A DNA stretch of 64,000 bases from an uncultured delta proteobacterium (GTDB lineage: Bacteria > Desulfobacterota > Binatia > Binatales > Binataceae), in assembly GCA_963724765.1 (NCBI GenBank), contig CAVRVY010000004.1:704001-768000 (forward strand), written 5' to 3'. Each line of letters begins with the position of its first letter. Within the stretch, counting starts at the first letter, position 1. Positions 2,772 to 43,747 of this stretch are shown piece after piece. Made by a program: the position numbers and the translations under genes. The notes under the pieces were generated by a model. The model ran no database searches. It saw only the letters and a program-made list of their open reading frames with translations, and was not told where the DNA came from.

Positions 2772-4166
2772 TCAGTCCTCTTTGAGATGATTATAGAGAG
2801 TCTTCAGAGATACGCCGAGAATCTCCGCGGTTTTTGCCTTGTTGCCACCGGTAGACTTAAGCGTCTGAACCAGAAGCTCGCGCTTAACCGCGTTCAGCGA
2901 CATGCCCACACGCACATCCAAGATGGGGTGCACCCCATTGCCAGGTTTGACCTCGCTTTGTATTCGAGGCGTAACCTCCCCGGCTATGCCAGGTTTGATC
3001 TCCTCTGGTAAATCTGCCAGCGAGATCATCGGACCACGTGTAACGATAATCGCCCGCTCGATTACATTGCGTAACTGGCGTACATTGCCTGGCCAATGTT
3101 GGGATCTAAGCAGCTCAAGACAGTCAGCTTCCATGCCGATAACAGATTTACCAGCGGACGGAGCAAGTTGCCGCAGGAAATGCTCGATTAGGCTCGGCAA
3201 GTCTTCGGAGCGCTCGCGTAGGGTCGGTAGTTGAATCGTAAAAACATTGAGTCTGTAGTAAAGGTCTTCTCGGAATTTCCCCTCGCGAAGCTGTATTTCC
3301 AGATTGCGATTGGTCGCGGCCAGCACGCGCACGTCGACAGGGATCTCGGTGCCGCCGCCCAAGCGGCGAATCTTCCGTTCTTCGAGGACTCGCAGGAGCT
3401 TCGCCTGCAATTCCGACTTCATCTCCCCGATCTCGTCCAGGAGAAGCGTTCCGCCGGTCGCGAGTTCGAAACAGCCTTCGCGGCGGCGATCAGCGCCGGT
3501 GAACGCTCCGCGTTCATGACCAAACAGCTCGCTCTCCATCAGGGTCTCGGGCAATGCGGCACAATTTATGGCGATGTAGGGACCACGCGACCGTGGCGAA
3601 AGATCATGAATAGTGCGAGCCACCAATTCCTTGCCGGTGCCGCTTTCGCCCACGATTACAACCGATGCAGTACTGGGCGCTACCTGCTCGACCAGCGCCA
3701 TTACGCGGCGCATCGCGAGAGACTGCCCGACCATCGGCCCCAGTTCGCCGGCTTCCATCAGGCGACGACGCAAAAGCTGGTTTTCCTTGCTTACGCTTAG
3801 ATGCGTCCGCAGGTTGTTGAGCAGTACCTCCAGATGATGAGGATCGACCGGCTTGCGCAGATAGTCGTAGGCTCCGAGTTTTATCGATTCGACCGCGTCC
3901 TCGATTTCGCCCTCGCCGGAGATCACGATGGTCGGAAGCTGCCAGCCGTTCGCACGGATTTCACCGAGCACCGCCAAGCCGTCTTTCTTTGGTAATCGGA
4001 GGTCGAGCAGGAGAATCTGCGGGTTGCAGCTTTCAATCAACTGCAGGGCGCGCTCGCCGTCTTCCGCGCTGTCAACGCGATATCCCCAGGACGAGATCAA
4101 CGTCGACCACGCTTCGCGCGCGTCCGCGTTGTCTTCGACGATAAGTACCCTCGTACCGGCTTTCAT
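2772..4166 (-). CDS. Sigma-54-dependent response regulator (NtrC/AtoC family EBP)
   Basis: REC domain, Walker A GESGTGKE, GAFTGA loop, LLLDEIGE, WPGNVRQL, C-terminal Fis HTH. Confidence 0.97.
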   Translation of the reverse strand: MKAGTRVLIVEDNADAREAWSTLISSWGYRVDSAEDGERALQLIESCNPQILLLDLRLPKKDGLAVLGEIRANGWQLPTIVISGEGEIEDAVESIKLGAYDYLRKPVDPHHLEVLLNNLRTHLSVSKENQLLRRRLMEAGELGPMVGQSLAMRRVMALVEQVAPSTASVVIVGESGTGKELVARTIHDLSPRSRGPYIAINCAALPETLMESELFGHERGAFTGADRRREGCFELATGGTLLLDEIGEMKSELQAKLLRVLEERKIRRLGGGTEIPVDVRVLAATNRNLEIQLREGKFREDLYYRLNVFTIQLPTLRERSEDLPSLIEHFLRQLAPSAGKSVIGMEADCLELLRSQHWPGNVRQLRNVIERAIIVTRGPMISLADLPEEIKPGIAGEVTPRIQSEVKPGNGVHPILDVRVGMSLNAVKRELLVQTLKSTGGNKAKTAEILGVSLKTLYNHLKED

Positions 4167-4362
4167 AGTGTTCGCTAGCGCAGTCGGTTCGCCCGCCGAA
4201 TAACGCGCCGTTGGCGGGTGGCGAGATACCTCTCCGCAATTCTGAACGTGCGATTCAGCGAGGGCTCAAATAATCCGGCCGCCCTCAACGCGCCTCAGCC
4301 ACACACGCCTTCGAGGTTTGTCTTGCGCATCTATTCTCTCCGTCACCGGGCCTTAAGACGTT

Positions 4363-4378
4363 AGCACCAACGATGCCA
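4363..4378 (-). promoter_or_regulatory. Putative sigma-54 promoter of the EBP gene
   Basis: Minus strand TGGCATCGTTGGTGCT = GG-N10-GC. Confidence 0.55.
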
Positions 4379-4520
4379 CACGCTCAGGCGGACAAGTGCT
4401 AATAAAAGTAGCATAAGATGCAGAAAACATCTATTAGCGTGTCACTGGATAGATATGCGGGCCGCGCGAAATTGTAAAATTTCCTTTTCCTCGCCGTAAA
4501 TCTGGCGTAATTTCGTTGGA

Positions 4521-6600
4521 TTACCGGGCAGGCCGCCTGACAGCCGACGTAACATAGTCGACCAGACGGCTCAGGTCTAATGGCTTGACCATACATGCAT
4601 CGAAGCCTTCCTGGAGCGCGCGCCGTGAATGGTGTGGATCGCTCAAACCGGTCAGTGCGATCGATAAAATCCTCCCAGCTTGCTTGGCCGGGTGCTGACT
4701 TAGCGATCGCATCAGCGCAAATCCATCCTGTCCCGGCATCGCGATGTCACTTATCAGCACGTCGGGAACCTGACGCGCGATTTCCGCCAGTCCCTCTTCG
4801 GTTGACTCCGCAGTAGTGGTATCCGCGCCAAGCCTTCGCAGAAGCTCCGCGAGCGCCTCGCGCGAATCACTATGATCTTCAACGACGAGAATCCTGATTC
4901 CCTCAAGCGTCCGCGACAGCGCATTCAGAGTGTGGGAGTCACGCTGCTGCTCGGGTCCGGTTCGCAGAGTCTGCAGCGGCAGCGTCACCGAGAAGGTGGC
5001 GCCTTTGTCGACCCCTTCACTTTCGACTCTGATGGACCCGCCGTGCAGTTCGACCAGCTTGCGCGCTATCGCAAGTCCGAGACCCAGTCCGTAATGTTCT
5101 CTGCTAGTGCTGCTGTCCGCCTGCCTGAACATATCGAACACGAAAGGCAGGAACTCAGCGCCGATGCCCTTTCCAGTGTCACTCACCGTCAAGGTGACGT
5201 CGCGCGCGCCGCGCTCGAGACTGAGGCGGACCCGGCCGCCCGCCGGCGTGAATTTAACGGCGTTGGACACGAGATTCGAAATCACCTGTTGAAGGCGTTC
5301 GGAATCTCCATTGATGCAAAGCGGCGGACCGCTCCATTGCCATTCGACCTGCAGGTTCTTGGCCTCAGCCGCCGGCCGTATCACATCCAACGCGCTGTCG
5401 ATGAGCGGCATCAGGTCGATCGTACGAAGCGTGAGGTGAACCTTGCCCCTGGCGATCCGTGACAGATCCAGGATCTCATCGATCAGCGAGACCTGCAGAT
5501 GAACGTTGCGCTCGATCGTTTCAAGCGCGCGCTTGGACCCGCAAGGATCGAGGTTGCCACTCTGCAGCAGGTTGACCCAGCCAACAATGGCGTTAAGCGG
5601 ATTGCGCAGCTCATGCGACACGGTGGCCAGGAACTCGTCCTTGATTCGATTTGCCGCTTCCGCCTGGAGCAGCGTCTGATTCTCGATCTCTATATCAGTG
5701 GCCGTGAGAATCCAGCCGGTTATCCCTTCGGCATCGTCACGTTGCGGGATACCGCGTCCGAGATGCCACCTGTAGAGGCCGTCGCGTCCGCGAATTCGAA
5801 ATTTGAGTTCGAACTCGCGATGATTGGCGATCGACTCATTCCATTGCTGCGCCAGATGTTCGCGATCAGTCGGATCGACGGTGTTGAGGAGCGCGTCGCG
5901 GGAAACAGCGCCTTGGGGGGCGACGCCTGTATAGGCCAGTGCGCTCTCGTTCCAGTAAACCGGGCGGCCCTGGTTGTCGGTCACCACCACGCACAGCGGT
6001 ATCGCGTCCGTCAGCTTGCGAAACCTGAGATCGCTCTTGCGCTCGAGTGACTCGCGCTCCTGCTGGCGCAAAGCCGAGGCCTGCTGCTTGATGGTCTGTT
6101 CCTTGAGGTAGAGATCGACGAACACGGCCACTTTGCAGCGCAGGATCTCGGGCTCGAAAGGCCTCACCAGAAAGTCGGCGGCACCCCTGGCGTACCCGTC
6201 CAATATCGAAGCCGAATCGGTATCGGCGGCAGTCAGAAAAATTACCGGCGTGGATTTGGCCCGCCATCTGCTCCGCATCAACTCCGCGGTCTTGAATCCG
6301 TCCAGGCCCGGCATGCGGACATCCATCAGAACGACGGCCATTTCCTCGTGGGCCAACAGCTCGATCGCCTGGTGGCCCGACGACGCCTTGACCAATCTAT
6401 GCCCCAGCGGCTCGAGGATCGCCTCGAGCGCGGCCAGGTTGGCCCGGTAATCGTCAACCAGGAGAATGCTTGCTCCCGCCGCCTGCATCGCCTCGCCATC
6501 CGCGCGCGACTTCTGAGTTCTCGACCGGCTCACCCCAGTAATCGACATCGCATCCGCTCCACCGTTAGCACTTGTATGCGTCGCTTTTCGAACGTCAAGG

Positions 6601-6611
<11 letters not shown>
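4521..6611 (-). CDS. Hybrid histidine kinase REC-PAS-HisKA-HATPase-REC with OsaB-like N-terminus
   Basis: LLVDDYRANLAALEAIL...KVAVFVDLY REC plus coiled coil; PAS/PAC; SHELRNPL H-box; GLGLGL G2 box; C-terminal REC. Start may lie further in. Confidence 0.93.
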
Positions 6612-11379
<4,768 letters not shown>

Positions 11380-11848: not shown

Positions 11849-11880
11849 GCCCTCAGTTGAAGGACCGCCGCCCAGAGGCG

Positions 11881-11922
11881 GCAGTCGACTGAAAGCAGCC
11901 GACTGAAAGCAGCCGGCTGAAC
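11881..11922. repeat. 3 x 14-bp tandem repeat
   Basis: gcagtcgactgaaa / gcagccgactgaaa / gcagccggctgaac. Confidence 0.85.
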
Positions 11923-11998
11923 GAAGGGAGGGAAGAATTTCATTCGAAAATAGTCCGCGGTGTCAGGCTTCTCCTTGGATTATTGGCAGCCAGCCTGC

Positions 11999-12014
11999 AG
12001 CAATAGCTGTGCCG
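11999..12014 (-). promoter_or_regulatory. Putative sigma-54 promoter of the kinase operon
   Basis: Minus strand CGGCACAGCTATTGCT, near-consensus GG-N10-GC. Confidence 0.7.
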
Positions 12015-12292
12015 AATTTTGTGCCATTAGCGATACATTGATTCTTGGTGCGCTTTACGGTGATTAATGTTGAGGATTAGCAGAATATTTTTTAATACAC
12101 AACGAATCAAGTTCGATTCGGTAAATTTTACATTACAATAAATTGTAGAAACTCGTTGTCGAATATTTCACTAACGGGAACTTTTGGACCAGCACGGCAC
12201 TGGTAGGTCCTCTCGTTCGCTCGAACGCGGCTGAATGGTGAGACGCTAGAGTAGGAACATTATACGAATACGAGCTCGGCGCCCTCGCCTGG

Positions 12293-12357
12293 ACGGCCGA
12301 CTCGCTTTCAGCGCAGAGTTCAGAAAAAAACCACTTTGCTTACCGCGAGTCGGCCGT
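12293..12357 (-). terminator. Long stem-loop 3' of the small lipoprotein gene
   Basis: 13-bp perfect inverted repeat acggccgactcgc/gcgagtcggccgt with inner pairing gcagagt/actttgc. Confidence 0.5.
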
Positions 12358-12382
12358 TCAACCGTCAGCTCGTCGATCTGGA

Positions 12383-12598
12383 TTACGGGTTATAGGTCGT
12401 GGTCGAATGCTGCCGCACGCTTCCATCGTCGGACTGCGTGGTGGTACTGGTCGTGCTGGTCTCACCAGGCGGCTCCGAGGGCACCACCTGAGCCGGCGCT
12501 TCGCTGGTGGTGGTTCTGTGATAACTGAAGCATCCGCTCGCCAGAATCATTGAAAGGCCAGCAATAGCCAGAATCGTCTTGTGCATAACGTGTTGCAT
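12383..12598 (-). CDS. Small Thr/Pro-rich lipoprotein
   Basis: Lipobox LASG-C, GGAGG RBS upstream, ends GSVRQHSTTTYNP. Confidence 0.8.
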   Translation of the reverse strand: MQHVMHKTILAIAGLSMILASGCFSYHRTTTSEAPAQVVPSEPPGETSTTSTTTQSDDGSVRQHSTTTYNP

Positions 12599-12688: not shown

Positions 12689-12704
12689 TGCAGTAGTCGT
12701 GCCA
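12689..12704 (-). promoter_or_regulatory. Putative sigma-54 promoter
   Basis: Minus strand TGGCACGACTACTGCA, ~90 bp upstream of the ATG. Confidence 0.75.
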
Positions 12705-13121: not shown

Positions 13122-13544
13122 TCAATCGCGATGCTTGGAATCGGCTGGGGCGCTCGAAATCAGGCCGACGTGACGGCCGAACATCTGCCAAGCGCCATCG
13201 CGCCTGACCCATGCGTTCATATAACTGCAGAACAGCACCGTGGCGGCCGCAGGTCCTTCGAGTTGCGAGGTCTCGTTGCCAGTAGTGACAACAGTGTCGC
13301 CGTTTATCGTGCCTCGCAGAGTAAGCCGTATATAGGATCTCAAACGAAGCCGCCCATCGGCGATCACGCCGAGAAGTATTTTTTTGTCCGCGATCAGATT
13401 TGAGGTACTATTCACCAGTAAATCGTCAGACCATAGCGCGCTCAGGGCCGTAACGTCGGCGCGCAGCATCGCGTTTGCTTCTCTTTGTTCCAAATCCTTT
13501 ATTTCCTTCCAAATTTCCGGCTCAGACGATTCGACGTCAAACAT
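13122..13544 (-). CDS. NTF2-like / DUF4440 family protein
   Basis: AMLRADVTALSALWSDD...WVRRDGAWQM pattern. Confidence 0.75.
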   Translation of the reverse strand: MFDVESSEPEIWKEIKDLEQREANAMLRADVTALSALWSDDLLVNSTSNLIADKKILLGVIADGRLRLRSYIRLTLRGTINGDTVVTTGNETSQLEGPAAATVLFCSYMNAWVRRDGAWQMFGRHVGLISSAPADSKHRD

Positions 13545-13640: not shown

Positions 13641-14039
13641 TCAGGTTGTCGACAGCGAACCATCGGAGTCTGCGCGACGCGCCAGTAGACGATCCATGAC
13701 GCGCAGGAGACGCTTCAAGTCGATAGGTTTTGCGATTAGGGCATCGGCATCGATCTTTGCCGAGTCCGCAAGCGCAGTCATGACCACGATCGGCACGGTC
13801 GCAAAAATCGGAAGCTTGGCGATTTCGGCACGAAACTCCCATCCGTCCATACCCGGCATCATCAGGTCGAGGATAATCAGATTCGGTGGCGGATGAGTGT
13901 CTAGGTATTCAAGCGCCTCGCGCCCGTCAAGGGCAGTCGCGACTGCGTATCCCTCGTACTCCAGGATCTGCGCGAGCGCTGCAACGGCGTCGGCATTGTC
14001 GTCGACGACCAGGACGGTAGGACCGGCTTTCAAAGTCAT
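13641..14039 (-). CDS. Single-domain response regulator
   Basis: VLVVDD, LDLMMPGMDG, KP motifs. Confidence 0.93.
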   Translation of the reverse strand: MTLKAGPTVLVVDDNADAVAALAQILEYEGYAVATALDGREALEYLDTHPPPNLIILDLMMPGMDGWEFRAEIAKLPIFATVPIVVMTALADSAKIDADALIAKPIDLKRLLRVMDRLLARRADSDGSLSTT

Positions 14040-15235: not shown

Positions 15236-15251
15236 AGCAACGAGGGTGCCA
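15236..15251 (-). promoter_or_regulatory. Putative sigma-54 promoter
   Basis: Minus strand TGGCACCCTCGTTGCT, very close to the RBS of the ATG at 15212. Confidence 0.6.
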
Positions 15252-15466
15252 CGGCCGCACTTTCGTTCAAAAGCTAAAAGTTTCTGAACCTCGAACTCAC
15301 GGATGGCATTTCGTGCAACGGTAAAAACGCAAATCGATGACTTTTTGTCACGTGGCGGGCAGTTTTTTCAAGTTCACTTGAACGCCAGGCGCGGCTGCGC
15401 TCGGAGCCAAATGAGACCGCTGACTTGTATTCTGGGGGGAGAGCGAGTCCAGATGAACTGGATTAA

Positions 15467-16873: not shown

Positions 16874-19800
16874 ATGGCAGAGGCCGCGCCGAAATTTGCG
16901 CAATTTCCGATCGTCGGCATTGGCGCGTCGGCCGGCGGATTGGAGGCCTTCTCCCAACTTATCAGCATGCTGCCGGAGAATTGCGGGATCGCCGTAGTGT
17001 TCATCCAGCATCTGGACCCCACCCACGAGAGCATGCTTAGTGAAATTCTTTCCCGCAACACGCAAATTGCGGTGAGCGAGGCTACCGATCAGACCGCGGT
17101 TGAGCCCAATCATGTCTACGTCATTCCGGCCAATGCCGATCTTTCGATACGGCATGGCGAGCTGCAGGTAGGTGCTCGCAGGCCCGGACACACACCCATC
17201 GATTCCTTCCTTCGCGCGCTGGCCGAGGATCGCGCCGACCATGCGATTGGCGTTGTGTTGTCAGGAAACGGCTCAGATGGCGCCCTGGGAATTGCGGCGA
17301 TCAAGTCGGCCGGCGGCCTCACTTTCGCCGAGGATCCACGAGCGGCGAAGTTTGACGGCATGCCGCGGGCCGCGATCGCGCTGGGCGACGTCGATTTTGT
17401 GCTACCGCCTGCGGAGATTGGTCGAACGCTTGCGCTTATGGGCAGGGACCCGCTCGCGCTGCGGCACGCAGTGGAACAGGGAGAACTCCCGGATCGCGAC
17501 GGCCTATGGTCCGTACTAGAGGCGCTGAACCAGGCGACCGGAATCGATCTGTCCTATTACAAGCCGGCCAATCTCAACCGGCGCATTCGACGGCGCATGC
17601 TGCTGGGCCAAATTGCCGAGTTCAAGGATTACGCCAAGCTGCTGACAGACAACCCGGCCGAAGCCTTCGCGCTCAGCTAGGATATCATGATCGGCGTGAC
17701 CTCGTTTTTTCGCGATGGCGCTAACGTGGAGGGTCTCAGCGAATTTGTGTTTCCTCAGTTCCAGTTGTCGCCTGACGAGCCTATCAGGATCTGGGTACCA
17801 GGCTGCGCGACCGGAGAAGAAGCCTATTCGATCGCGATCTGTTTGAGCGAATTCCTGGAAAAACTCGGCCGTGACGATCCGTTTCAAATTTTCGCCACCG
17901 ACATAAACGATAACGCGGTCGAGCGAGCCCGCAGTGGAATTTACTCTTCCTCCATCGCAAGCGATGTATCGCCCGAACGCTTGCGGCGCTTCTTCATTCA
18001 GGTCTCGGGCGGTCACCAGGTTTCCAAGCAAATACGTGAGCACTGTATTTTCGCCGGGCATAATCTCGTAACCGACCCGCCGTTCTCCCGACTCGATCTG
18101 GTGTCCTGCCACAATGTGCTCATCTACCTGCGCCCGGAGATTCAAAGCCGGGTTCTCGCGACCTTCTATCAATCGCTCAAGCCGAACGGATTTCTTGCGC
18201 TCGCCCGCTCGGAGAGCGGGGGCGAACTGTTCTCGCAAATTGCCGAGCCCAAATACGGAATCTTTGCCAAGCGGCCGGAGGCTGTTCGCTTGGATAGCGG
18301 AGCCACTGTCGGAGGCCAGAGCTTTGCCCCAAGCCCGCCGCACCGTGGAGATCCTCCCGCCTCGCCGGCCCACGAGCGTTTGGAGAAGGAATTCGAGCGC
18401 GTCCTCCTCCAACGGTATTCACCGCCCGCAGTGCTGGTCGATGAAAACCTGGAGATTCAACAATTCCGCGGCAGCACCGGCGCCTTTCTTGAGCCTCCGG
18501 CCGGAAAGGCCACTCCCAACCTGATTAAAATGTCCAGGGAGGCTATCCGCACGGAATTGCAGACGTTGCTATATAGCTCCCGTCAACATAACAGACCCGC
18601 GCGTTGCGAAAACTTCGAATTCGACGACCACACCGGTCATCACAGGTCACTGACTATCGAGGCGCTCCCACTTAAGCTCTCGCACGGCGGGCGCCATTTC
18701 CTGGTCACGTTTGAGGAAACAACCGGCGTCCAAAGAGTGCGCGGCGGACGGCGCATTGAAAAAAAAGACGGCCGCAGGAGCGTTACCCGCGAGCATGAAT
18801 TGGCGACTGTGGGCAGTGAACTGGAGCGTGCGAAAGCTCAACTCCATTCCATAATCGAGGACCTTGAAGCCTCGAACCATCAGCTCAAAACCGCCAACGA
18901 GGAAGTCCTATCCACCAATGAGGAACTCCAGAGCATGAACGAGGAGCTCCAGACTTCCAAGGAGGAGTTGCAGTCCACCAATGAGGAACTGACCACGCTC
19001 AACGATGAACTGCAAAACCGCTACGCTGAACTCTCCCAGACTTCATCCGACCTCAACAATATATTGGGTAGCTTGAACGTGCCGATCCTGATCCTCTCGC
19101 GGGATCTGCGGATCAGGCGGTTTACTCCGACCGCGACCAGAGTACTCAATGTCATCGCGAGCGATATTGGGCGCCCAATCGGCGACATTACGTTGAATAT
19201 CCATTTGACCGGACTCGAATCGATGGTGGTCGATTCCATCGACAGCATCAGTGTCAGGGAATGCGAGGTTCAAGACCGCGAAGGGCACTGGTATGCAGTG
19301 CGAATCCGTCCCTACCGCACCCTGGATGACCGGATCGATGGCGCGGTCCTGGTAATGATCGATATTGATGATATCAAACGCAGCCTGGAACAGGCGCAGG
19401 CGGCGCGAGACTATGCCGAAGCCATTGTCGAGACGGTAGGCCAGCCGCTTCTGGTGCTTGACGCAGCCTTGACGGTGCGCACGGCCAACCACGCCTTCTG
19501 CGAGGTGTTTCAAACCACGACAGCCGAAATCGAAGGCCAGCGCATATCGCACGCGCAGGGCGGAGCATGGAACCTGCGGCCCTTGATGGAAACGCTCGCG
19601 AACGTGCGCAGCCAAGGGCAGCGCGTCGAAGATCTCGAGCTCGTTTGTCAATCGCCCCGCATGGGCGAACGGCAATTGCTGATCAGCGTTCGCCGCCTGG
19701 AGCAGGATCCATTGAGCGATCCGCTCATCCTGCTGGCGATCGAAGACGTCACGTTACGTCAGAGCGAAGCGCGGTTTCGATTGACCTTCGAACAGGCGGC

Positions 19801-21334: not shown

Positions 21335-21508
21335 TCTCCTCCGCACTTTGCCGAAATCGGCAACAAATTCCATATTGGTCGATTTCTTTCCGGCCTTTTC
21401 CGAATCATATCTTAACCGCTCAATTGCCGCATGGGGTCCTGATTTGTAATTTTTCGCTCCTTCCAAGACCCACTTACGAATAGCTGGCGCCGCTGGCCAC
21501 TTTCAATC

Positions 21509-21524
21509 TGGCATGACAATTGAA
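21509..21524 (+). promoter_or_regulatory. Possible sigma-54 promoter (-12 GA variant)
   Basis: TGGCATGACAATTGAA upstream of ATG 21580. Confidence 0.4.
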
Positions 21525-21579: not shown

Positions 21580-21927
21580 ATGAAAGTACACAAGATAGCT
21601 GCGGTCGCGGCAAGCGCGATACTGCTCGCGTTAGCTGGGTGCACCAAGCAAAACGTTTTAACCCATAAACTCGTAGCCACGGGCGGCGAGCATTCGGTAG
21701 CCCTCTATCCCGATGAAGCGACCTTCCTCAAGGTTTCGCATAAGGCACAACAAGGCGGAGTGAGCGGCATGGTGGGTAACGCGCAGGAGGACCTATCGGC
21801 AAAGAAGATCGAGGATCAGACTCCGGTCAACATCATCTCAAGTGATAGCAATGGTACCGAAGTCGAGATCGTTGAGGGTCCAATGAAAGGCACGGCGGGC
21901 TTCGTCGCGAGTCAGAACGTAAACTGA
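21580..21927 (+). CDS. Lipoprotein of unknown function
   Basis: AAGGA RBS; MKVHKIAAVAASAILLALAG-C lipobox. Confidence 0.75.
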   Translation: MKVHKIAAVAASAILLALAGCTKQNVLTHKLVATGGEHSVALYPDEATFLKVSHKAQQGGVSGMVGNAQEDLSAKKIEDQTPVNIISSDSNGTEVEIVEGPMKGTAGFVASQNVN

Positions 21928-22042
21928 TGCGGAACCGGCGGCATAGCGTCTGTGGTAATAAGCGACTTGTACTATTTGCATCGCTTGAAGTGTTATCAGC
22001 TTATCTGATCATCAGAAGGTGCGAGACAAGGCTACATTCTGC

Positions 22043-22058
22043 TGGCATGCCTGATGCG
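22043..22058 (+). promoter_or_regulatory. Putative sigma-54 promoter
   Basis: TGGCATGCCTGATGCG upstream of the DUF3309 gene. Confidence 0.65.
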
Positions 22059-22308: not shown

Positions 22309-22324
22309 TGGCATACTGATTGCG
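22309..22324 (+). promoter_or_regulatory. Putative sigma-54 promoter
   Basis: TGGCATACTGATTGCG upstream of ATG 22373. Confidence 0.75.
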
Positions 22325-24340: not shown

Positions 24341-24356
24341 AGCAAACCCCATGCCC
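24341..24356 (-). promoter_or_regulatory. Putative sigma-54 promoter
   Basis: Minus strand GGGCATGGGGTTTGCT. Confidence 0.6.
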
Positions 24357-24531
24357 CGAGAGCCAACCCGGAAAATGCGTATGCTAATAACGGAAAAACT
24401 GACGCTCTATGATATCGGACTAGGCCTGTCGGTATTTTTTGCAGAGAACCGCAGAATTCTGACATTGCCGGTTGCGCTTGTTCCGCGGGGCCCGTATTGC
24501 TCCGAAGTGGCCAGATCTAAAAAGAGAATCT

Positions 24532-27429: not shown

Positions 27430-27611
27430 AGCTCTCGCGAGCAGTCTCTCCGGTTACGCGAGAACCATGCCAGTTCCGCGACACCCAGCCGGGAGGCGGT
27501 TGTCGATGGTCGTTTCCGATATCGGTTAGGGCTCGACGTTCTCGTGCGTTCCGGGTGTTGGGAGAGCCAAACCGGAGCTAAGGTTTCGTCACATAACAAG
27601 ACAGAACCCAA

Positions 27612-27627
27612 AGGCATACCCATTGCT
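27612..27627 (+). promoter_or_regulatory. Putative sigma-54 promoter of the ABC-GT4-glucosidase operon
   Basis: AGGCATACCCATTGCT. Confidence 0.65.
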
Positions 27628-27686: not shown

Positions 27687-29582
27687 ATGGATTCGAACGA
27701 AGTCAGCGGTTCTCGTTCGCCGCTTATCAGATTTTTGTCATTCGTCAGGCCGCACCTGGGGCTCGTAATCGGTGCGGCGCTGACCGGGATCGGTAAATTC
27801 ACCCTGCCGCTCGCCTTTCCGCTTGCCTTTAAATACATCATCGACGTTCTGATCGCATCGCAACCGAAGCTGGACGGAATCAATCTGATGATTGACCGCT
27901 GGTGCGCCGGGCTTGCTCACGTGGCACGGATGACGCCGACCGCGGAGCATAAACTGGCGGCGCTGAGTGCCGCGCTGTTGCTGCTCTACGCATTGCAGTC
28001 CATAGCAAGCTACTACCGCAACTACTGGGCGGGTATCGCCGGCAATCGCCTGATCTTCGAATTGCAGTGCAAGCTGTTCGCGCACCTGCAGCGGCTTCCG
28101 CACGCCTTCTTCGATCGCAATCCATCGGGAGCGATCGTTTCGCGAGTGCTGAACGACGTACAACAAGCGCATGAGCTGGTGAACTCGGCTCTCATCGACG
28201 TCTGGATGGACGCGATATCGTTGGGACTGGTGGTGGTGGTCCTGTTCGCGATGGATTGGCGGCTGGCGCTGGTGGCGCTGTGCATCGCGCCGGTCTGGGT
28301 GACCTTCATGCGGTACTTCTCACCCAGGATCAAGGCCGTAAGCCATCGGATGCAGGAGACGATCGAGAACATTTCCGGCGAAGTTCAGGAACGGGTAGCC
28401 GGGGCCACCACCATCAAATCGTTCGGGCGCGAGGAGCACGAGGTGCGCCGCTTCAGGGAACATAGCGGACGTCTGTGTGAGCGCACGATCGATAAGGTCA
28501 AGCTCGCGGCCCGGCAAGAGATGCTCATCCAGTTGCTGACGCGTTGTGCGCCGACGATCGTGGTGTGGATCGGCGCGCTGATGATCATGCGGGGCACGAT
28601 GACGCTCGGAACGATGGTGGCGTTTTTCACCTACCTCGGGTTTCTGTACCTGCCCCTGGAGCGCTTCGCGCAATTTTCGGTGGTGGTGTCATCTTCGCTG
28701 GCGGCGATAGAGCGCATATTTGAATTTCTCGATATCAAGCCCGAAATCACTAACCATCCACTGAGCCGTCCATTTGCGGTTCGCCGCGGCGGCGTGCAAT
28801 TCGATCGCGTAAGCTTCAACTACCCGACACGCAATGGAGCGGCCAGCCGCGGAACGCTTACGGACCTCAACCTTAGCGTGCAGGGAGGTTCCAAGGTGGC
28901 GCTGGTTGGACGTTCGGGCGCCGGCAAAACGACTTTGGCGAGCCTGATTCCACGCTTCTACGACGTTAGCGGCGGGCGCGTGCTGATCGACGGCAAGGAC
29001 GTGCGGCACTATACGCTGAAATCGCTGCGCGAGAGCGTGAGCCTCGTGGCGCAGGACGCTCTTCTGTTTAGCGCGAGCATCCGCGACAACCTGCTCTACG
29101 CGCGCCCGGAGGCGTCCGAGGAAATGCTCTGGCAGGCGCTTGAGCTGGCCAATATGCGCGAGTTCGTGGACGAATTGCCCGTCGGAATCGACACCGTGAT
29201 CGGTGAGCGCGGGGTAAAAATTTCTGGCGGACAACGCCAACGGCTCGCGCTCGCGCGCGCCTTCCTCAAGGACTCCAAGGTTGTAATCCTCGACGAGGCG
29301 ACCTCGGCGATCGACTCGGAATCAGAGAACTTGATTCACGAGGCGATGGAGCGTCTGATGGAAGGGCGAACTGTTTTTCTCATCGCGCATCGCCTGCGCA
29401 GCGCCATAGACGCTGACCTGATAGTTGTGCTCGACCACGGCAACATCGTCGAAACCGGCATCCACTCCGAGTTGCTTAACCGCGGCGGAACCTACGCCCG
29501 CCTGTTCAGGGAGCAGGTCCGCGGTCTTGCCCTGGAGCCGGCGCGTGCCAGTCACGACGTCCGGCCGCCGATGCAGGCATAG
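27687..29582 (+). CDS. ABC exporter, fused permease/ATPase (MsbA/Sav1866 type)
   Basis: TM domain; GRSGAGKT, ISGGQRQR, ILDEATS, IAHRL; start chosen at ATG 27687 (ORF track gives 27630). Confidence 0.93.
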   Translation: MDSNEVSGSRSPLIRFLSFVRPHLGLVIGAALTGIGKFTLPLAFPLAFKYIIDVLIASQPKLDGINLMIDRWCAGLAHVARMTPTAEHKLAALSAALLLLYALQSIASYYRNYWAGIAGNRLIFELQCKLFAHLQRLPHAFFDRNPSGAIVSRVLNDVQQAHELVNSALIDVWMDAISLGLVVVVLFAMDWRLALVALCIAPVWVTFMRYFSPRIKAVSHRMQETIENISGEVQERVAGATTIKSFGREEHEVRRFREHSGRLCERTIDKVKLAARQEMLIQLLTRCAPTIVVWIGALMIMRGTMTLGTMVAFFTYLGFLYLPLERFAQFSVVVSSSLAAIERIFEFLDIKPEITNHPLSRPFAVRRGGVQFDRVSFNYPTRNGAASRGTLTDLNLSVQGGSKVALVGRSGAGKTTLASLIPRFYDVSGGRVLIDGKDVRHYTLKSLRESVSLVAQDALLFSASIRDNLLYARPEASEEMLWQALELANMREFVDELPVGIDTVIGERGVKISGGQRQRLALARAFLKDSKVVILDEATSAIDSESENLIHEAMERLMEGRTVFLIAHRLRSAIDADLIVVLDHGNIVETGIHSELLNRGGTYARLFREQVRGLALEPARASHDVRPPMQA

Positions 29583-29666
29583 GCCATTCGGCCATACGCT
29601 CGAGAGGAATGGCGCATCAGAATTGGAGCGACACCATCCCGGTCATCGAACATCAGGAGTCTAGCG

Positions 29667-30842
29667 TTGGATCGAATTAATGAAGGCAAGAGCGGGCTCT
29701 CGCACGCCGGGGCTCCGCGACTGCGCATCGCGCAGGTGGCGCCTCTATACGAACGGATTCCGCCGAAGCTTTATGGTGGCACTGAACGGGTGGTGTCCTA
29801 CATAACTGAAGAACTGGTACGCCGCGGACATCAGATTACGCTCTTTGCCTCGGGTGACTCACAGACTGACGCACAACTCGCGCCCGGATGTCCGCAGTCC
29901 CTGAGGTTGGCGGGCAAACCTGAACTCGGCGCCTTCCTTCAGCTTCCGATGCTTAGTGATGTCTACGAGGAAGCCGCAAGCCGCTTCGACCTGATTCACT
30001 CTCATATCGATTACTGGAGCTTCCCGTTCGCCCGGCTGACCAATGTCCCGACGGTCGCGACGATGCACGGTCGGCTGGACATGGAGGAGTTGCACCCGGT
30101 CTATGCGCGATATCGCGGCGTTCCGCTGGTCTCGATCAGCGACGCGCAGCGGCAACCGCTGCCGCTTATGAACTGGGTCGATACCATTTACCACGGCCTC
30201 CCGCGCGACCTGCTGCGCTTCAGCCCCGGTCCGGGAAAGTATCTGGCGTTTCTAGGCAGAATCTCACCCGAGAAACGTCCCGACCTCGCAATCGACGTCG
30301 CCCGGCGGGCGGGTATTCCCTTCAAGCTTGCCGCCAAGGTCGACGTCGTCGACCGCGCTTACTTCGAGACCGTGATCAAGCCGCTTCTGTCACCACCCGA
30401 CGTCGAATACATCGGCGAGATCGGCGAATCCGAAAAGAGCGAATTTCTGGGTAATGCACTCGCCCTCATGTTTACTATCGATTGGCCTGAGCCGTTCGGG
30501 CTCGCCATGATCGAGGCCCTGGCATGTGGGACGCCGGTGATCGCGCGGCCCTGCGGCTCCATCCCCGAGGTTATCCGTTCGGGCGTCACCGGCTTTGTCG
30601 CGGGGAGCGTCGACGAGATGGTCGCCGCGGTGGCCAAAATCGGCACGCTCTCGCGGGAGGAATGCCGCCGGGAATTCGAGAATCGGTTCACCGCGGAAAT
30701 CATGGTTGATCGTTACGAGCAGGTTTATCGCCAGCTGATCGAAGGGGGTCAACGTAAGCAGGTTTTTGGAAAGCCGAAAGAGACTTACCATCAGGCCGGA
30801 ATAGCCAGCTCGATCGGTAAGGCTTCCGAATCCGGCTTGTGA
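29667..30842 (+). CDS. Glycosyltransferase family 4
   Basis: IAQVAP..PPKLYGGTERVV; WPEPFGLAMIEALACGTPV. Confidence 0.93.
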   Translation: MDRINEGKSGLSHAGAPRLRIAQVAPLYERIPPKLYGGTERVVSYITEELVRRGHQITLFASGDSQTDAQLAPGCPQSLRLAGKPELGAFLQLPMLSDVYEEAASRFDLIHSHIDYWSFPFARLTNVPTVATMHGRLDMEELHPVYARYRGVPLVSISDAQRQPLPLMNWVDTIYHGLPRDLLRFSPGPGKYLAFLGRISPEKRPDLAIDVARRAGIPFKLAAKVDVVDRAYFETVIKPLLSPPDVEYIGEIGESEKSEFLGNALALMFTIDWPEPFGLAMIEALACGTPVIARPCGSIPEVIRSGVTGFVAGSVDEMVAAVAKIGTLSREECRREFENRFTAEIMVDRYEQVYRQLIEGGQRKQVFGKPKETYHQAGIASSIGKASESGL

Positions 30843-33094
30843 AACGCCGAAGCGTTAACGCCGCTGGCGCGAACGGGCAGGACCGCGTCGCGGACGGCGA
30901 GCGTGGGGCGCGCAACGTAGTAAAAGTCGGTTCCGACTTTTACGTTCTCGCCTCCGCGCTCGCGTCACGCCGCGCCTCACGGGTACTGGCCAATGGCCAG
31001 AGCTTTGCGGTTTTCGACGTCGGCGGCGATATTCTCGACTACCCACTCGAAGCGCTGGGCTTTTTCTATCGCGACACGCGCTACCTGAGCCATTTCGAGC
31101 TCAGGATCCATGGGAGCACTCCGTATTTCCTGAATTCCTACTTGAGCGATGACAAGGCGCAACTTCGGGTCAACCTCACCAATCCGGATCTGAACGCGGA
31201 TGGCCGCGCGATCAAGTTGCCGCGCGATCAAATCCAAATGGAGCGGAGTTGGGTCTTGGCTGACGCGACCCTAGTCCATCGACTTCGGGTCCGCAACTAT
31301 GCCGAGACTCCGCTCCAGATCCCGCTCGAGTTTTTTCTTGGTGCGGATTTCGCCGACATTTTCGAGGTGCGCGGGATCGAGCGCAAACGTCACGGTAGCT
31401 ATCTGCGCCCCGAAGTCGGAAAAGGCAAGGTCAGGTTTTCTTACGCGGGGCTGGACGGCGTGAGGCGCTTCACCGAGGTTGCGTTCGACACGATGCCGCG
31501 GACGCTAAGCGGAGAACGGGCCCTCTTCCTGTTGAATCTCGCCCGGGACGAAACCGCCGGACTTGAGGTTCGCATCACGAGTGGCAGCGAACGCGAGGCG
31601 TCGCACATACGTTCCCCCAAGCCGGCCGGTTTCGACAGCGCACTGGCTGCGCGACGGTCGGAAATCGAGGAATCTCAGACCGGATGGGCCAGGCTTTCGG
31701 CGAGCAACACGCTCTTCGATTCGCTGCTGACTCGCTCGCAGGCGGACCTGACCTCGCTCATTTCGCATACTATCGACGGCACCTTCATAATGGCCGGGAT
31801 ACCATGGTTCGCGACACTCTTCGGGCGCGACAGCATTATAACCACGCTCGCCGTGTTGCCCTTCAATCCGGATGTCGCTGCGCTAACGCTCCGAATGCTG
31901 GCGGGAATGCAAGGATCGCAGATCAACAAGGCCCGCGAGGAGCAGCCAGGCAAGATCGTGCACGAGATCCGTGCTGGCGAGATGGCGGCTACCGGCGAAA
32001 TCCCCTTCGGCCGCTACTACGGCAGTATCGACTCGACGCCCTTGTTTCTGTGGCTTTATGGGCGCTGCGTCGCGACTACCGGAAACCTCGCGTTCGCCGA
32101 TGCGCTATGGCCGAGCGTCGAGCGCGCGCTCGAGTGGATCGAACGATGGGGCGATCGCGATGGCGACGGATACGTCGAGTACATGCGCAAGACGCCCCAC
32201 GGGCTCGCAAACCAGGGATGGAAAGATTCCTTCGACGCAATCTCGCACGCGAGCGGTGAATTGGCCACTGCGCCGATCGCACTTGCCGAAGTGCAGGGCT
32301 ACGTCTACGCCGCCTACGTCAGCGTCGCGGACGTGGCGGCACGCCTTGGACGCAGTGGCGTTGCGTCACGCCTTGCCGAGCGGGCGGCATCGTTAAGAAA
32401 AGCCTTCGTACGCGACTTCTGGCTGGAGCCGCAACGGACCGTCGCGCTCGCCCTGGATGCCGAGAAACAACCTTGCCGGGTAATGGCTTCGAACGCCGCG
32501 CATTGCCTTGCGGCCGGCCTGCTGGACGCGGATCAGGCCGCCGCTCTGTCACAGCGACTTCTCGGGGACGACATGTTTTCGGGCTGGGGCATGCGAACGC
32601 TCGGCGCCAACGAGCGCCGCTATAACCCGATGAGCTATCACAACGGATCGGTATGGCCGCACGACAACGCGATCGCGGCGGTGGGTCTCGCGCGGTATGA
32701 TAATCGCATTGGCGCGCTCAGGATCCTCGAGGGTCTGTTCGACGCAGCCGTGCAACTGGAGACCGCAAGCCTGCCGGAGCTTTTCTGCGGCTTCCCGCGC
32801 GAGCCTCGGCTTGGCCCGGTACCTTATCCTGTTGCCTGTTATCCGCAGGCATGGTCGGCCGCGAGCGTGTTCATGATCCTGCAAGCTGTACTGGGCCTCG
32901 AGGTGATGGGCTTCGAGCGGCGAGTTTTGATCGATTCGCCTACGATTCCGCCCTGGCTCGAATGGCTGAGGATCGAAGATCTGAAAGTGGGGGACTGTTC
33001 GATTTCCTTGTTTCTGCGACGCACAGAAAACGGCACCACCGAGACTGAGATTCTGGAAAGGACCGGCTCGGTTACTGTCGAGGTCAAGAGATAA
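30839..33094 (+). CDS. Amylo-alpha-1,6-glucosidase / glycogen debranching family protein
   Basis: AGIPWFATLFGRD, PGKIVHE, NQGWKDS, YHNGSVWPHD, LPELFCG, PQAWSA. Confidence 0.93.
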   Translation: MKRRSVNAAGANGQDRVADGERGARNVVKVGSDFYVLASALASRRASRVLANGQSFAVFDVGGDILDYPLEALGFFYRDTRYLSHFELRIHGSTPYFLNSYLSDDKAQLRVNLTNPDLNADGRAIKLPRDQIQMERSWVLADATLVHRLRVRNYAETPLQIPLEFFLGADFADIFEVRGIERKRHGSYLRPEVGKGKVRFSYAGLDGVRRFTEVAFDTMPRTLSGERALFLLNLARDETAGLEVRITSGSEREASHIRSPKPAGFDSALAARRSEIEESQTGWARLSASNTLFDSLLTRSQADLTSLISHTIDGTFIMAGIPWFATLFGRDSIITTLAVLPFNPDVAALTLRMLAGMQGSQINKAREEQPGKIVHEIRAGEMAATGEIPFGRYYGSIDSTPLFLWLYGRCVATTGNLAFADALWPSVERALEWIERWGDRDGDGYVEYMRKTPHGLANQGWKDSFDAISHASGELATAPIALAEVQGYVYAAYVSVADVAARLGRSGVASRLAERAASLRKAFVRDFWLEPQRTVALALDAEKQPCRVMASNAAHCLAAGLLDADQAAALSQRLLGDDMFSGWGMRTLGANERRYNPMSYHNGSVWPHDNAIAAVGLARYDNRIGALRILEGLFDAAVQLETASLPELFCGFPREPRLGPVPYPVACYPQAWSAASVFMILQAVLGLEVMGFERRVLIDSPTIPPWLEWLRIEDLKVGDCSISLFLRRTENGTTETEILERTGSVTVEVKR

Positions 33095-33810: not shown

Positions 33811-33826
33811 AGCAATTGCTATACCG
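33811..33826 (-). promoter_or_regulatory. Putative sigma-54 promoter
   Basis: Minus strand CGGTATAGCAATTGCT. Confidence 0.55.
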
Positions 33827-34087
33827 GAAACCGATTACGATCTATAGTTGCGCACTAATCCGTACTTTCAGCGTGGTGGAAGACAATCGTGTACAGAGTC
33901 TCTGCACATTTCGTAAGTTTTTCTCCGCTCTATTAGTCGCCCTTTCCGGTCTATGATTAAATGCAGGTATTATTTGCACTGTCATAGACCTGGATGCGTG
34001 AGGTAACAATGTCACGCCGAGGACTCCAAGTGTGTCTGCCGCGACAACCATGACCGCTTATCGGACGCGGCCGGCACAGTCTTATCG

Positions 34088-35799: not shown

Positions 35800-36135
35800 C
35801 TACGGATTAGTGGTAGTCGTCGTTGTCGTAGACGACCCCGGCGCTCCGTTGTTCCAGGTAGTCGTACTCTGGTTCTGGACCTGACCATCGACAGATCTGG
35901 TCGTCCTTTTCTCCTCCACGGTTCCATTACCCCAGCTGGTTGAGGTAGTTGTTTGGCTCGCATCCGAGGCGGGCGCGACTACGACGGGAGCCGGAACTTG
36001 CACAACGGGAGGTGGTACTTGCACCACGGGGGCAGGCACCGTGTCCACCTCCTTGGTGCTGGAGAAACATCCGGCAAACATGCCGCCGATGGCGAGCGAT
36101 ATCACCAAGGAGCCAAAACGTGTATATAAACGCAT
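35800..36135 (-). CDS. Thr/Pro/Val-rich lipoprotein
   Basis: GAGGTG RBS; lipobox MFAG-C; PAPVV repeats; GQVQNQSTTTW; poly-T end. Confidence 0.8.
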   Translation of the reverse strand: MRLYTRFGSLVISLAIGGMFAGCFSSTKEVDTVPAPVVQVPPPVVQVPAPVVVAPASDASQTTTSTSWGNGTVEEKRTTRSVDGQVQNQSTTTWNNGAPGSSTTTTTTTNP

Positions 36136-36182: not shown

Positions 36183-36198
36183 AGCAATCGTCGTGCCA
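36183..36198 (-). promoter_or_regulatory. Putative sigma-54 promoter
   Basis: Minus strand TGGCACGACGATTGCT, consensus match. Confidence 0.8.
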
Positions 36199-36278: not shown

Positions 36279-36674
36279 CTATTCTCCCGGGCGCGCTGGG
36301 ATAGCGGCAAAATTCCCGGGATTTTCAGCCATGGCTGACTTAATGTCGGGGTGCGCCTGGAAGAATGCGTTGAGATCCGGATGACCCTTTAAGTAAAGCG
36401 GATCGTTTATCAGGGACGGCCGATACGCTAGCGTGTGTGCAATTCCAGCATGCGCGTCGGCAAAGTTTTCCCACGTCCGGAGGCGAGCGGTGTCAATGTC
36501 GCGACTGTCCGCGGGCTCGAATATGATCGTGGTATTGCCTCTTTGAACTGCGCCCAGGGGCTTCGCGCCTTGCGTTTGCGATTGAACGACTACCGTCCGG
36601 CTGTCTTGTCCAGCCACAGGCATCGTAAGAACCAGGCTGAATCCGATAGCAAACGCGAGTGCTGTCAAACGCAT
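36279..36674 (-). CDS. Secreted protein, HPDL...NPGNF motif
   Basis: GAGGAG RBS; signal peptide; paralog at 56584-57003. Confidence 0.75.
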   Translation of the reverse strand: MRLTALAFAIGFSLVLTMPVAGQDSRTVVVQSQTQGAKPLGAVQRGNTTIIFEPADSRDIDTARLRTWENFADAHAGIAHTLAYRPSLINDPLYLKGHPDLNAFFQAHPDIKSAMAENPGNFAAIPARPGE

Positions 36675-36767: not shown

Positions 36768-36783
36768 AGCAAGCAATATGCCA
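36768..36783 (-). promoter_or_regulatory. Putative sigma-54 promoter
   Basis: Minus strand TGGCATATTGCTTGCT. Confidence 0.8.
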
Positions 36784-38980: not shown

Positions 38981-39314
38981 TTTGCAGTCGTGGGTTTCGC
39001 GGGGTGATGCTCGATTTATTTTATACTAACCGAACCTTTCTACAACGCAGCTGCGTTCAGAATTATGAGTCCACCAGGAGGACACACGTGCGTGGCTCTA
39101 CGAGAATCTAAGCGACCCTGCTGGCCCCGCAATTGCTGTACTAAGGTGCCTGATACATGGCCGCGTAACAATTACATCAGGCGGAATGACAAAATGAACT
39201 GATGATCGAATTCGCGGGAATTTAAAACAAGTTGGCGGTGCGTTTAATTCCACCATTGCTCGACTGCTGCAAATCGCAGCGCCTAAACAACCGGCGTCGC
39301 ATGCACAATAAAGG

Positions 39315-39330: not shown

Positions 39331-39359
39331 AGTGGCACTAGATCCACCCGGACCGGAAT

Positions 39360-42750: not shown

Positions 42751-43033
42751 TTGACGATCCTTGCGATGCAGTCTTCTTTCCGGCGTGAAACCTGTCCGCG
42801 CAATAACGCCGCAGGCAACCCCTGGACGGTTACCTCCGCCGGCCCCTGCGCGTAGCAGCTACCACAACATAAAATCGAGAGTCGCACCACATTTACTCGG
42901 TGCAACCGCGTGGATGCTCTCTTATGACGCGCAGTTCAGGTCGAGCGCGAAAATTTTAGCTCAGACGAACGGGTAACGGACAATCGCGATTCGGGCGCCG
43001 CGAACGGCAGGCCGATCTGCGCATTCGAGAGTC

Positions 43034-43660
43034 TCAATGAGCGGGCGACGAGCCGCACGGCAGTTGATGGACCGCCGCGTATCGGTAGGTGCGGCCATTC
43101 CAATCGAAGGTCCCAGTGTTCTGTCCGAAATTCTGGTTGAGAGCGTCGACCTCCGCATGCTCCGTCGGATTGCGAACCTCGGTCGGCGCGTAGGCAAGGT
43201 AAGTGATCGACCTCGGAACCAGCTCGTTTTGAAGGGGCGGCTGGAAGTTCATCGTGGTGAAGTTGCCCGCCAGCCTCCAGCCATTGTTCTCCGACTGGCT
43301 CACAATGGCGGTCACATGCGGGTCGGACTGCGGGCCTATCGGCGTCATTGGCCGATACAGAGTGGTGCCCAGTTTGTCGGTTCGAAGCTCAATCAGCGGC
43401 GGCAGCTGACGACCTCCCGTGTCGCAAATTTCATCGTCCTGCGCAGTTGCTCCTTTGGATTTCGTGGCGGAGGCGACACCCGAGCCAGCCGCTCGTACCA
43501 ACTGCACCGCCACCGGCGCCAGCGCGAACGCGGCCATAAAGCATCCGCCAGTGCCCGTTCCCAACGCGGCCAACCCGCAAAACAGGGCGACCTTCGTAAC
43601 CAGCGATCTGCCATGGAAACCGCAATGGCCGCCACGGAACGTCTGGCGAGATGGATTCAA
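43034..43660 (-). CDS. Hypothetical exported protein / possible lipoprotein
   Basis: Hydrophobic N-region ending GG-C; sigma-54 motif upstream. Confidence 0.55.
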   Translation of the reverse strand: MNPSRQTFRGGHCGFHGRSLVTKVALFCGLAALGTGTGGCFMAAFALAPVAVQLVRAAGSGVASATKSKGATAQDDEICDTGGRQLPPLIELRTDKLGTTLYRPMTPIGPQSDPHVTAIVSQSENNGWRLAGNFTTMNFQPPLQNELVPRSITYLAYAPTEVRNPTEHAEVDALNQNFGQNTGTFDWNGRTYRYAAVHQLPCGSSPAH

Positions 43661-43731
43661 ATGGATGTCGTCCGTTTCGCTGTGTCAAATCCGACGACAG
43701 CTTGGCAAACTGTCGAGCCAGTTGTTCGCAG

Positions 43732-43747
43732 AGCAAGGAGCGTACCA
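43732..43747 (-). promoter_or_regulatory. Putative sigma-54 promoter
   Basis: Minus strand TGGTACGCTCCTTGCT. Confidence 0.7.

Follow-up and report, generated by a model that had tools for sequence, protein, structure and literature searches.

The 64,000-nucleotide stretch of DNA analysed here as a whole (the window; C4:704001-768000, where C3 and C4 are contigs of the source genome) carries, between positions 2772 and 43747, a gene for an NtrC-type enhancer-binding protein (EBP; 2772-4166, minus strand) and a series of sigma-54 promoters. The promoters, their conservation in relatives, a palindrome shared upstream of them and an intact activator were all observed, and on balance we favour the view, with moderate confidence, that a clade of NtrC-type activators specific to Binataceae runs a dispersed sigma-54 regulon, one that takes in a substantial share of the general-stress genes. 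The original prediction, a list of 14 GG-N10-GC or GG-N10-GA motifs read as a locally encoded general/osmotic stress regulon, is largely right in what it observed and partly right in its interpretation.

The source genome (5.4 Mb in 4 contigs, 97% complete, 5.2% contaminated) belongs to Candidatus Binataceae, and the window comes from an uncultured soil bacterium; this family label is carried by 90%-cluster mates of both the poly-HAMP kinase of the window and the RpoN protein of the genome. Gene calls were made by a simple script, and the coding mask and the starts of short open reading frames (ORFs) are thus approximate. The presence of rpoN, on which a sigma-54 reading depends, was confirmed as a single intact copy (TIGR02395, 439.7 bits vs a cut-off of 277), and about 26 sigma-54 activators are encoded (25 full-length Pfam matches scoring more than 170 bits, and some partial matches).

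As the bare GG-N10-GC pattern is uninformative (447 + 519 = 966 matches within the window), a sigma-54 matrix was trained on 157 non-coding sites from outside, with the window and 20 kb on either side excluded. All 14 listed motifs are present in the sequence, at most 1 nt from where they had been placed. Nine of them score 14.0-20.4 bits (GG at 4377-, 12013-, 15250-, 22044+, 22310+, 24355-, 27613+, 36197- and 36782-, the sign giving the strand), three score 7.2-9.4 bits (12703-, 33825- and 43746-), the motif at 21510+ reaches 3.5 bits, and that at 39316+ only -7.9 bits. Thirteen are credible as sigma-54 promoters; the remaining variant, 39315/39316, is not conserved in orthologs and was rejected as the promoter of cls. 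A conserved site precedes cls at 39123+ (13.4 bits) instead, and this, together with 27471- (13.5 bits) before an MFS gene, makes two strong sites that had been overlooked. The sites are intergenic and correctly oriented as described, and at 12/14 of them the GG lies 38-108 nt from the start codon, where mostly 25-90 bp had been estimated; the activator (211 nt) and the kinase (634 nt) fall outside this range. The gene labels given to the targets proved correct where checked by Pfam. The features are as follows.

2204-2410, minus strand: DUF6496 small protein 3' of the activator, with no sigma-54 site of its own (1.4 bits).
2772-4166, minus strand: NtrC-type EBP of 464 aa with receiver, AAA+ domain with GAFTGA, and Fis helix (Pfam, alignment).
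4364-4377, minus strand: sigma-54 site of the activator gene, 15.1 bits (matrix, orthologs).
4472-4486, minus strand: candidate enhancer for the promoter of the activator gene, 14.8 bits; it overlaps the end of the upstream kinase region.
4521-6611, minus strand: hybrid kinase, REC-PAS-HisKA-HATPase-REC.
6601-11379, minus strand: soluble AskA-like poly-HAMP hybrid kinase with HAMP array, GAF, HisKA, HATPase and REC (Pfam; PDB 9TRK, E 1e-110).
11856-11989, minus strand: probable sigma-54-driven non-coding hairpin RNA with a C-rich loop, the long closing stem lost here.
12000-12013, minus strand: sigma-54 site before the RNA element, 18.4 bits.
12081-12133, minus strand: two candidate enhancers, 12119-12133 (15.1 bits) and 12081-12095 (11.0 bits).
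12690-12703, minus strand: weak, conserved sigma-54 site before the gene for a lipoprotein-like protein of 71 aa (12383-12598).
13641-14039, minus strand: single-domain response regulator, followed by a DUF4440 gene at 13122-13544 (Pfam).
15237-15250, minus strand: sigma-54 site of the nucleotidyltransferase gene (start 15212, frameshifted); enhancer candidate 15357-15371.
21510-21523, plus strand: GG-N10-GA variant site of gene 21580-21927; enhancer candidate 21444-21458.
22044-22057, plus strand: sigma-54 site of the DUF3309 gene (22114-22269); enhancer candidate 21967-21981.
22310-22323, plus strand: sigma-54 site of the gene for a secreted protein (22373-22831); enhancer not found (1.3 bits).
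24342-24355, minus strand: sigma-54 site of gene 24049-24300; enhancer candidate 24430-24444.
27458-27471, minus strand: sigma-54 site of the MFS gene.
27613-27626, plus strand: sigma-54 site of the ABC transporter, GT4 and glycoside hydrolase run (27687-33094); shared enhancer absent.
33812-33825, minus strand: weak conserved sigma-54 site of an M23 peptidase gene; enhancer candidates 33965-33979 and 33911-33925.
36184-36197, minus strand: sigma-54 site, 20.4 bits, of lipoprotein-like gene 35800-36135 (1/1 ortholog).
36769-36782, minus strand: 19.4-bit sigma-54 site before gene 36279-36674 (the regions taken from relatives contain no ortholog).
39123-39136, plus strand: conserved sigma-54 site of cls.
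43733-43746, minus strand: weak, conserved sigma-54 site before gene 43034-43660, with an enhancer candidate at 43864-43878.

Frameshifts split three genes, namely the nucleotidyltransferase (15212/14311-15270), cls (39360-40232/40109-40789) and ppk2 (45776-46623), and could be assembly errors; in most of the relatives checked, each of the first two is a single frame. Directly 3' of gene 12383-12598 lies a GC-rich inverted repeat of 12 bp (12291-12362; loop of 39 nt). Further along, a 2880-aa GH94/glucoamylase protein (46654-55296, minus strand), presumably a cyclic glucan synthase-like enzyme, has pgm and ppk2 downstream, with an enhancer-like score of 11 and no sigma-54 site.

The region 2772-43747 holds 11 non-coding sites of at least 12 bits. 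The 129 non-overlapping 41-kb tiles of the genome have 1.74 such sites on average, and 100 local shuffles of the region gave a mean of 2.24 and a maximum of 7; the predicted excess over the genome background is thus borne out. Genome-wide there are 229 such sites, and two other regions are equally dense, C4:645-686 kb (13 sites) and C3:1590-1631 kb (12 sites).

The sites are also kept upstream of orthologs. For this comparison, regions around the activator and DUF3309 were taken from ten genus relatives, which are kin and not independent samples, and the DNA before each ortholog was scored. Sites of at least 12 bits were found for the ABC transporter in 7/7 orthologs, gene 24049 in 6/6, cls in 4/4 scored, the nucleotidyltransferase in 2/2, and a long CsbD gene located 945 nt left of the window in 9/10; at least 8 bits was reached by DUF3309 in 6/8 and MFS in 4/7. 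For the weak sites, the same degenerate motif stands at a comparable distance before most or all orthologs (12703 in 7/7, 21510 in 7/9, 33825 in 5/6 and 43746 in 4/5), and because of this recurrence the -12 GA variant at 21510 is taken as real. Among control genes with no claimed site, 0/52 orthologs reached 12 bits and 5/52 reached 8 bits. The site of the activator gene is present at 8 bits or more in 10/20 homologs, or 9/13 of those with at least 79% identity; among the homologs missing it are three that have a kinase gene immediately before them, and the paralog, which has its site at -351. Between the MFS and ABC genes, positions 27500-27520 form a conserved block with an identical 13-mer in 4/4 aligned genomes, which resembles the stretch before 24355 and is a candidate site of a different regulator. 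The CheB/CheR-PAS hybrid kinase at 16874-21334 (plus strand, two ORFs) has no sigma-54 site here, and 11-bit sites in 3/3 relatives.

Alignment of orthologous promoters further revealed a footprint, G-W-A-N5-T-W-C, corresponding to a palindrome near TGWA-A(W3)T-TWCA, in which the G and C at symmetric matrix positions are nearly invariant. Leave-one-family-out testing found it conserved in register in 10/13 promoter families (p 0.007-0.026 vs permuted matrices) and absent from those of MFS, ABC and cls; the test is lenient, because the seed came from two of the tested families and the null breaks A-tracts too. The final enhancer matrix was rebuilt from sites of the relatives and refined from a matrix that included window sequences. 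At 8 bits or more it matches 11/17 promoters of the window and its flank, 7/12 of a second island (C3:1590-1631 kb), 1/22 of the USP-type set and 27/183 others, mostly 65-155 nt upstream of the GG (range -52 to -194). The excess of the second island over other promoters gave p 0.005 raw and 0.013 after per-sequence shuffling. A shared upstream site at enhancer distance is therefore supported by ten promoter families, the held-out second island and the RNA loci described below. The best outside matches include the divergent pair C4:1115940/1116135, with DUF1328 and holin-like genes on one side and a BON protein and exopolysaccharide (EPS) export genes on the other; further ones precede unrelated genes (HTH_17, GNAT, metallo-hydrolase, O-antigen ligase). 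A separate sigma-54 set with its own 17-bp palindrome occupies C4:645000-686000 and C4:931-941 kb (Hsp20, CBS, hemerythrin, DUF2267), and includes a receiver-less activator at C4:660309.

The activator itself has the parts of an NtrC-type EBP (E11-D12, D55, S83, K105, GAFTGA and the Fis helix) and reaches the cut-off of none of the named NCBIfam equivalogs tried (NtrC, AtoC, ZraR, NtrX, FlbD, LuxO and the PEP-CTERM regulator), its best scores being 442 vs 714 for AtoC and 411 vs 559 for NtrC. A paralog at C3:1592681, with 87% identity, the same recognition helix and its own site and enhancer, heads the second island, and a third one at C4:1391505 (62-63% identity, similar helix) has no sigma-54 site; a scan found the recognition helix in no other activator of the source genome. 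The subfamily appears restricted to the family: at E<=1e-135, with 8 candidates scored per genome, it occurs in 19/25 family genomes and 0/175 other genomes of the class. The close form is present in 10/16 genus relatives, and exactly these also carry the long CsbD gene, though the two genes are usually linked. In another genus, related activators sit among DUF4142, DUF4440, CsbD and DUF1328 genes with site and enhancer. Among 80 loci of distant relatives, mostly of 37-57% identity, no stress-island context was seen except in the three closest records, so the system is not extended beyond the family by that route.

The strong site at 11999/12013 had been assigned to the kinase operon, which is not upheld. 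A non-coding element follows it, 634 nt separate it from the kinase gene, and the element is kept in relatives that lack the kinase; the site most likely drives a conserved hairpin RNA, degenerate in the window, rather than the kinase. In relatives the element forms one long hairpin with a 14-bp outer stem, an inner stem and a C-rich loop, with folding z-scores of -3.9 to -6.6 in 7/7 relatives folded. The long stem is missing from the window copy, which folds with z -2.2 and scores weakly against the RNA model (17.2 and 12.1 bits). Changes on both sides affect 10/24 base pairs, almost all from one sequence. A covariance model matched 13/101 family genomes, 7 of them at E<1e-9, and three of the strong matches are new (G236, G262 and G271, of one genus with training genome G018) and lie in other gene contexts; these loci combine a 17-19-bit sigma-54 site with a clean palindromic enhancer of 13-17 bits at -99 to -102, and six weak matches have no sigma-54 site. 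Rfam gave 0 matches in the window at gathering score and 0 in six homologous RNA loci at E<=1. Taken together, this is probably a previously undescribed sigma-54-driven hairpin RNA with a C-rich loop, present in two genera of the family. A simple terminator scan found no terminator after the element, and read-through into the kinase operon is possible; with the site most likely belonging to the RNA, it is the sole route by which the proposed positive feedback could extend to the kinases. For the activator gene, the proposed autoregulation agrees with the conserved site and enhancer before it. In genus relatives the RNA lies divergent from an ExeA-like ATPase gene, whose copy in the source genome (C4:1474289) has a 21-bit site and an enhancer score of 11. 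At C3:1116906 (plus strand) a sigma-54 site is followed by a structured element with three C-runs, with no enhancer of the shared type.

As for the input, the 1592-aa poly-HAMP kinase matches AskA crystal fragments at E 1e-110, and the kinases adjoining the activator are hybrids with intact His/Asp motifs, but they vary among relatives. The word "osmotic" in the original prediction goes too far: besides gene content, its sole basis is that OsaA/OsaB of Streptomyces coelicolor and the fungal group III kinases, homologs of this kinase, are tied to osmotic stress (PMC9739842, PMC13446029). A second poly-HAMP kinase lies at C4:1499657-1506055 in several pieces beside an insertion sequence, followed by a REC-GAF hybrid kinase; its intact form in relatives has about 2136 aa.

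We picture a system in which stress would cause the hybrid kinases (the poly-HAMP protein and its REC-PAS partner), probably via a phosphotransfer protein, to phosphorylate D55, after which the activator would oligomerise on the palindrome and open sigma-54 promoters. Its putative targets would be CsbD, DUF3309, DUF1328, BON, ferritin-like and small envelope proteins as well as the C-rich hairpin RNA, and opening of the promoter of its own gene would close a positive feedback loop. The ABC/GT4/hydrolase, MFS and cls promoters, together with KatE, otsA, treY and Ku, are presumably under different or indirect control. The claim that a stress gene set is wired to sigma-54 through the 2772-4166 EBP keeps its footing in site density, conservation, the intact activator and its own site and enhancer, and does not extend to the three promoters that lack the shared enhancer, which may use another of the roughly 26 activators. 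In the case of the GT4/glucosidase operon, the site at 27613 is conserved, and the first gene after it is the ABC transporter.

Several observations weigh against this regulon. The link between activator and enhancer is drawn solely from adjacency and autoregulation, in a genome with so many activators. When promoters of this genome alone were searched de novo, the enhancer did not rise above shuffles (28-38 vs 27-31), and the same search did find the 17-bp palindrome of the USP-type set (100 vs 29). The first enhancer matrix gave p 0.004 raw and only 0.07 after composition control; the motif is short and A/T-rich, it was seeded from two of the families on which it was tested, column permutation also breaks A-tracts, and the final matrix descends from one containing window sequences. 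In addition, a site of at least 12 bits within 420 nt precedes only 10/33 hand-picked stress and signalling genes, which were selected when some of the sites were already known; among 2141 operon heads the background rate is 3.2%. On the input side, an orthologous poly-HAMP kinase occurs in just 3/10 genus relatives with a close activator, and none of the five histidine phosphotransfer (HPt) matches falls in the window; the input is thus variable and unproven. Dyad enumeration and palindromic expectation-maximisation on 31 stress-type promoters of the source genome likewise gave nothing above shuffles.

These points lend some weight to an alternative that we hold to be unlikely, though worth serious attention, namely that the promoters are real and served by several activators in a genome that makes wide use of sigma-54, the island being a collection of co-acquired genes with no single master switch and the "enhancer" being partly a conserved A-tract or bending element. 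The 229 sites and the many activators of the genome are in line with it, as are the 3/13 families without the motif, the 27/183 other promoters with it (many before unrelated genes), the scatter of enhancer offsets from -52 to -194 and the failed de novo recovery. Against it count the near-invariance of the symmetric G and C, the presence in the USP-type set of another palindrome and not the shared one, and the RNA loci, which keep a clean palindrome at about -100 in other gene contexts.

The 11 sigma-70-family matches of the genome comprise two RpoD-like, one sigma-32-like and eight extracytoplasmic function (ECF) proteins, none of which passes the RpoS (a proteobacterial model) or SigB/F/G cut-offs, and the best PhyR score is 58 bits vs a cut-off of 240. 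Across 41 genomes (the source and 40 relatives), 0 SigBFG matches at E<=1e-45 and 0 RpoS matches at E<=1e-95 were found, with searches that detect the positive controls in B. subtilis and E. coli. No canonical dedicated general-stress sigma system thus passes its cut-off in the source genome. In this genome without SigB, an RsbR-RsbS-RsbT-phosphatase module followed by two histidine kinases lies at C3:1604-1611 kb in the second island. A sigma-54-like site of 15 bits (C3:837727, minus strand) stands 261 nt before one rpoD gene, and a Crp-family regulator gene with a 17-bit site (C4:638201, plus strand), followed by DUF3309-like and four-BON genes, could form a cascade.

Genes with reported sites include those for CsbD, DUF3309, DUF1328, BON, ferritin-like, YdaD-like SDR, DUF6496 and AI-2E proteins, and the second island contains KatE, PfpI, YdaD-like SDR, DUF4142, LigD pieces, ferritin-like genes and RsbR-S-T. 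No strong site of their own was found for KatE, PfpI, otsA, treY, Ku, DUF4142, ndvB, pgm and the short CsbD genes; KatE, PfpI, otsA, treY, Ku, DUF4142 and both short CsbD genes score below 9 bits, and some of the site-less stress genes may be read from upstream operon promoters. Ku was also tried as a target and rejected, 1/29 of its orthologs reaching 10 bits. Most window targets have no Pfam family and are largely uncharacterised secreted or envelope proteins.

It is quite unlikely, in our estimation, that the real regulon is a cell-envelope or developmental programme, with the core stress response run by ECF sigmas, the second RpoD-like sigma or a Crp-family regulator. Such a programme would accommodate the lipoproteins, M23 peptidase, RlpA-like protein, cls, EPS export and ExeA-like ATPase of the target set, the predominance of uncharacterised secreted and envelope proteins in the window, the low scores of the KatE group and the two RpoD-like and eight ECF sigmas; it also fits the framing of sigma-54 as a controller of the cell exterior (PMC3162934) and the role in Myxococcus development of the closest studied poly-HAMP kinases (PMC7643160). 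The sites before the CsbD to AI-2E genes listed above speak against it, and EcfG-, SigB-, Crp- and FNR-like patterns were not enriched before 21 site-less stress genes (3 matches, at a background of 4-10% per pattern).

A strictly local system, in which the kinase operon and the rest of the island would form a closed regulon run by the 2772-4166 activator and nothing else, is highly improbable: the activator, the kinases and 15 credible sites do lie within 41 kb, and the activator promoter does carry site and enhancer, but the same-helix paralog heads the second island, enhancer-bearing promoters and putative targets lie some 350 kb away (C4:1.116 Mb), the island is split or rearranged in most relatives, and the 12013 site belongs to the RNA.

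In teaching, general stress responses are credited to an alternative sigma factor dedicated to them. The dispersed sigma-54 regulon favoured here allows a bolder proposal, which we put forward only tentatively: a fourth general-stress wiring in Binataceae, in which a lineage-specific sigma-54 activator replaces RpoS, SigB or EcfG as a self-amplifying master switch, receives inputs from a fungal-type poly-HAMP osmosensor and a stressosome-linked kinase module, and controls a C-rich hairpin small RNA (sRNA) that blocks ribosome-binding sites. If true, the stress response would stay tightly shut off for as long as its activator, which consumes ATP, does not fire; this would be another logic for survival in soil. 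It would also offer a possible transcriptional output for the bacterial poly-HAMP kinases, whose roles have been called largely uncharacterised (PMC13446029). The activator, enhancer, promoters, candidate kinases and sRNA are all named, and the proposal can be tested in a heterologous host with no need to culture the organism. In the literature consulted, which took in few subscription papers and no supplements, no such regulon was found in Binatota and no CsbD/DUF1328/BON regulon under sigma-54.

In model bacteria, general stress responses are the regulons of RpoS, SigB and EcfG/PhyR. The Binataceae system resembles them in its target families (CsbD, DUF1328, BON, ferritin-like, YdaD-like SDR and DUF3309), in the proposed positive feedback on the regulator and in the RsbR-S-T module of the second island; it differs in its -24/-12 promoters, which need an ATP-driven activator, in the lack of any such sigma or PhyR passing a cut-off, and in the several hallmark genes without a site. 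The response regulator BfmR of Acinetobacter baumannii is not known to be a sigma-54 activator. It is similar in that general-stress/desiccation genes such as katE are placed under a response regulator (PMC13232832).

Closer in mechanism are two activators of Myxococcus xanthus, NmpR, with the site GCGCA-N5-TGCGC and a regulon of oxygen utilisation (PMC11841059), and Nla28, with the half-site CT(C/G)CG(C/G)AG and a suggested part in a starvation-induced general stress response (PMC9765219). They share with the present protein the receiver-AAA+-helix architecture, palindromic or tandem enhancers and, as proposed for it, multi-kinase input and binding to the promoter of their own operon; compared by description, the site here is an A/T-rich palindrome and the targets are of the CsbD/DUF3309/DUF1328/BON type. 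In Desulfovibrio vulgaris the DVU3305 sigma-54 regulon has been labelled general stress, and as described there it comprises two operons only, with no dispersed CsbD-type regulon (PMC4641369). The main text of a sigma-54 regulon survey contains none of the terms "general stress", "Binat" and "CsbD" (PMC12316311).

On the input side, the arrangement seen here, in which a second kinase or regulator comes after a soluble poly-HAMP hybrid kinase, has parallels in AskA/AskB/AskC of M. xanthus, OsaA/OsaB and the fungal group III kinases; the M. xanthus gene askC, which is required for glycerol sensitivity, comes after askB and encodes a second hybrid kinase (PMC7643160). None of the Ask, Osa and fungal kinases feeds a sigma-54 activator in the accounts consulted, whereas the kinase here, which would do so, is optional (3/10 relatives). 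The hairpin RNA finds its nearest likeness in the Pxr sRNA with PxrR/Nla19, which also has a predicted sigma-54 promoter and enhancer beside an NtrC-like regulator gene (PMC5684412), although Pxr has three stem-loops and lies downstream of pxrR, and the RNA described here is one long hairpin upstream of the activator operon. The mechanism itself is classical NtrC-type; what differs is the absence of the usual stress sigmas and the set of target genes.

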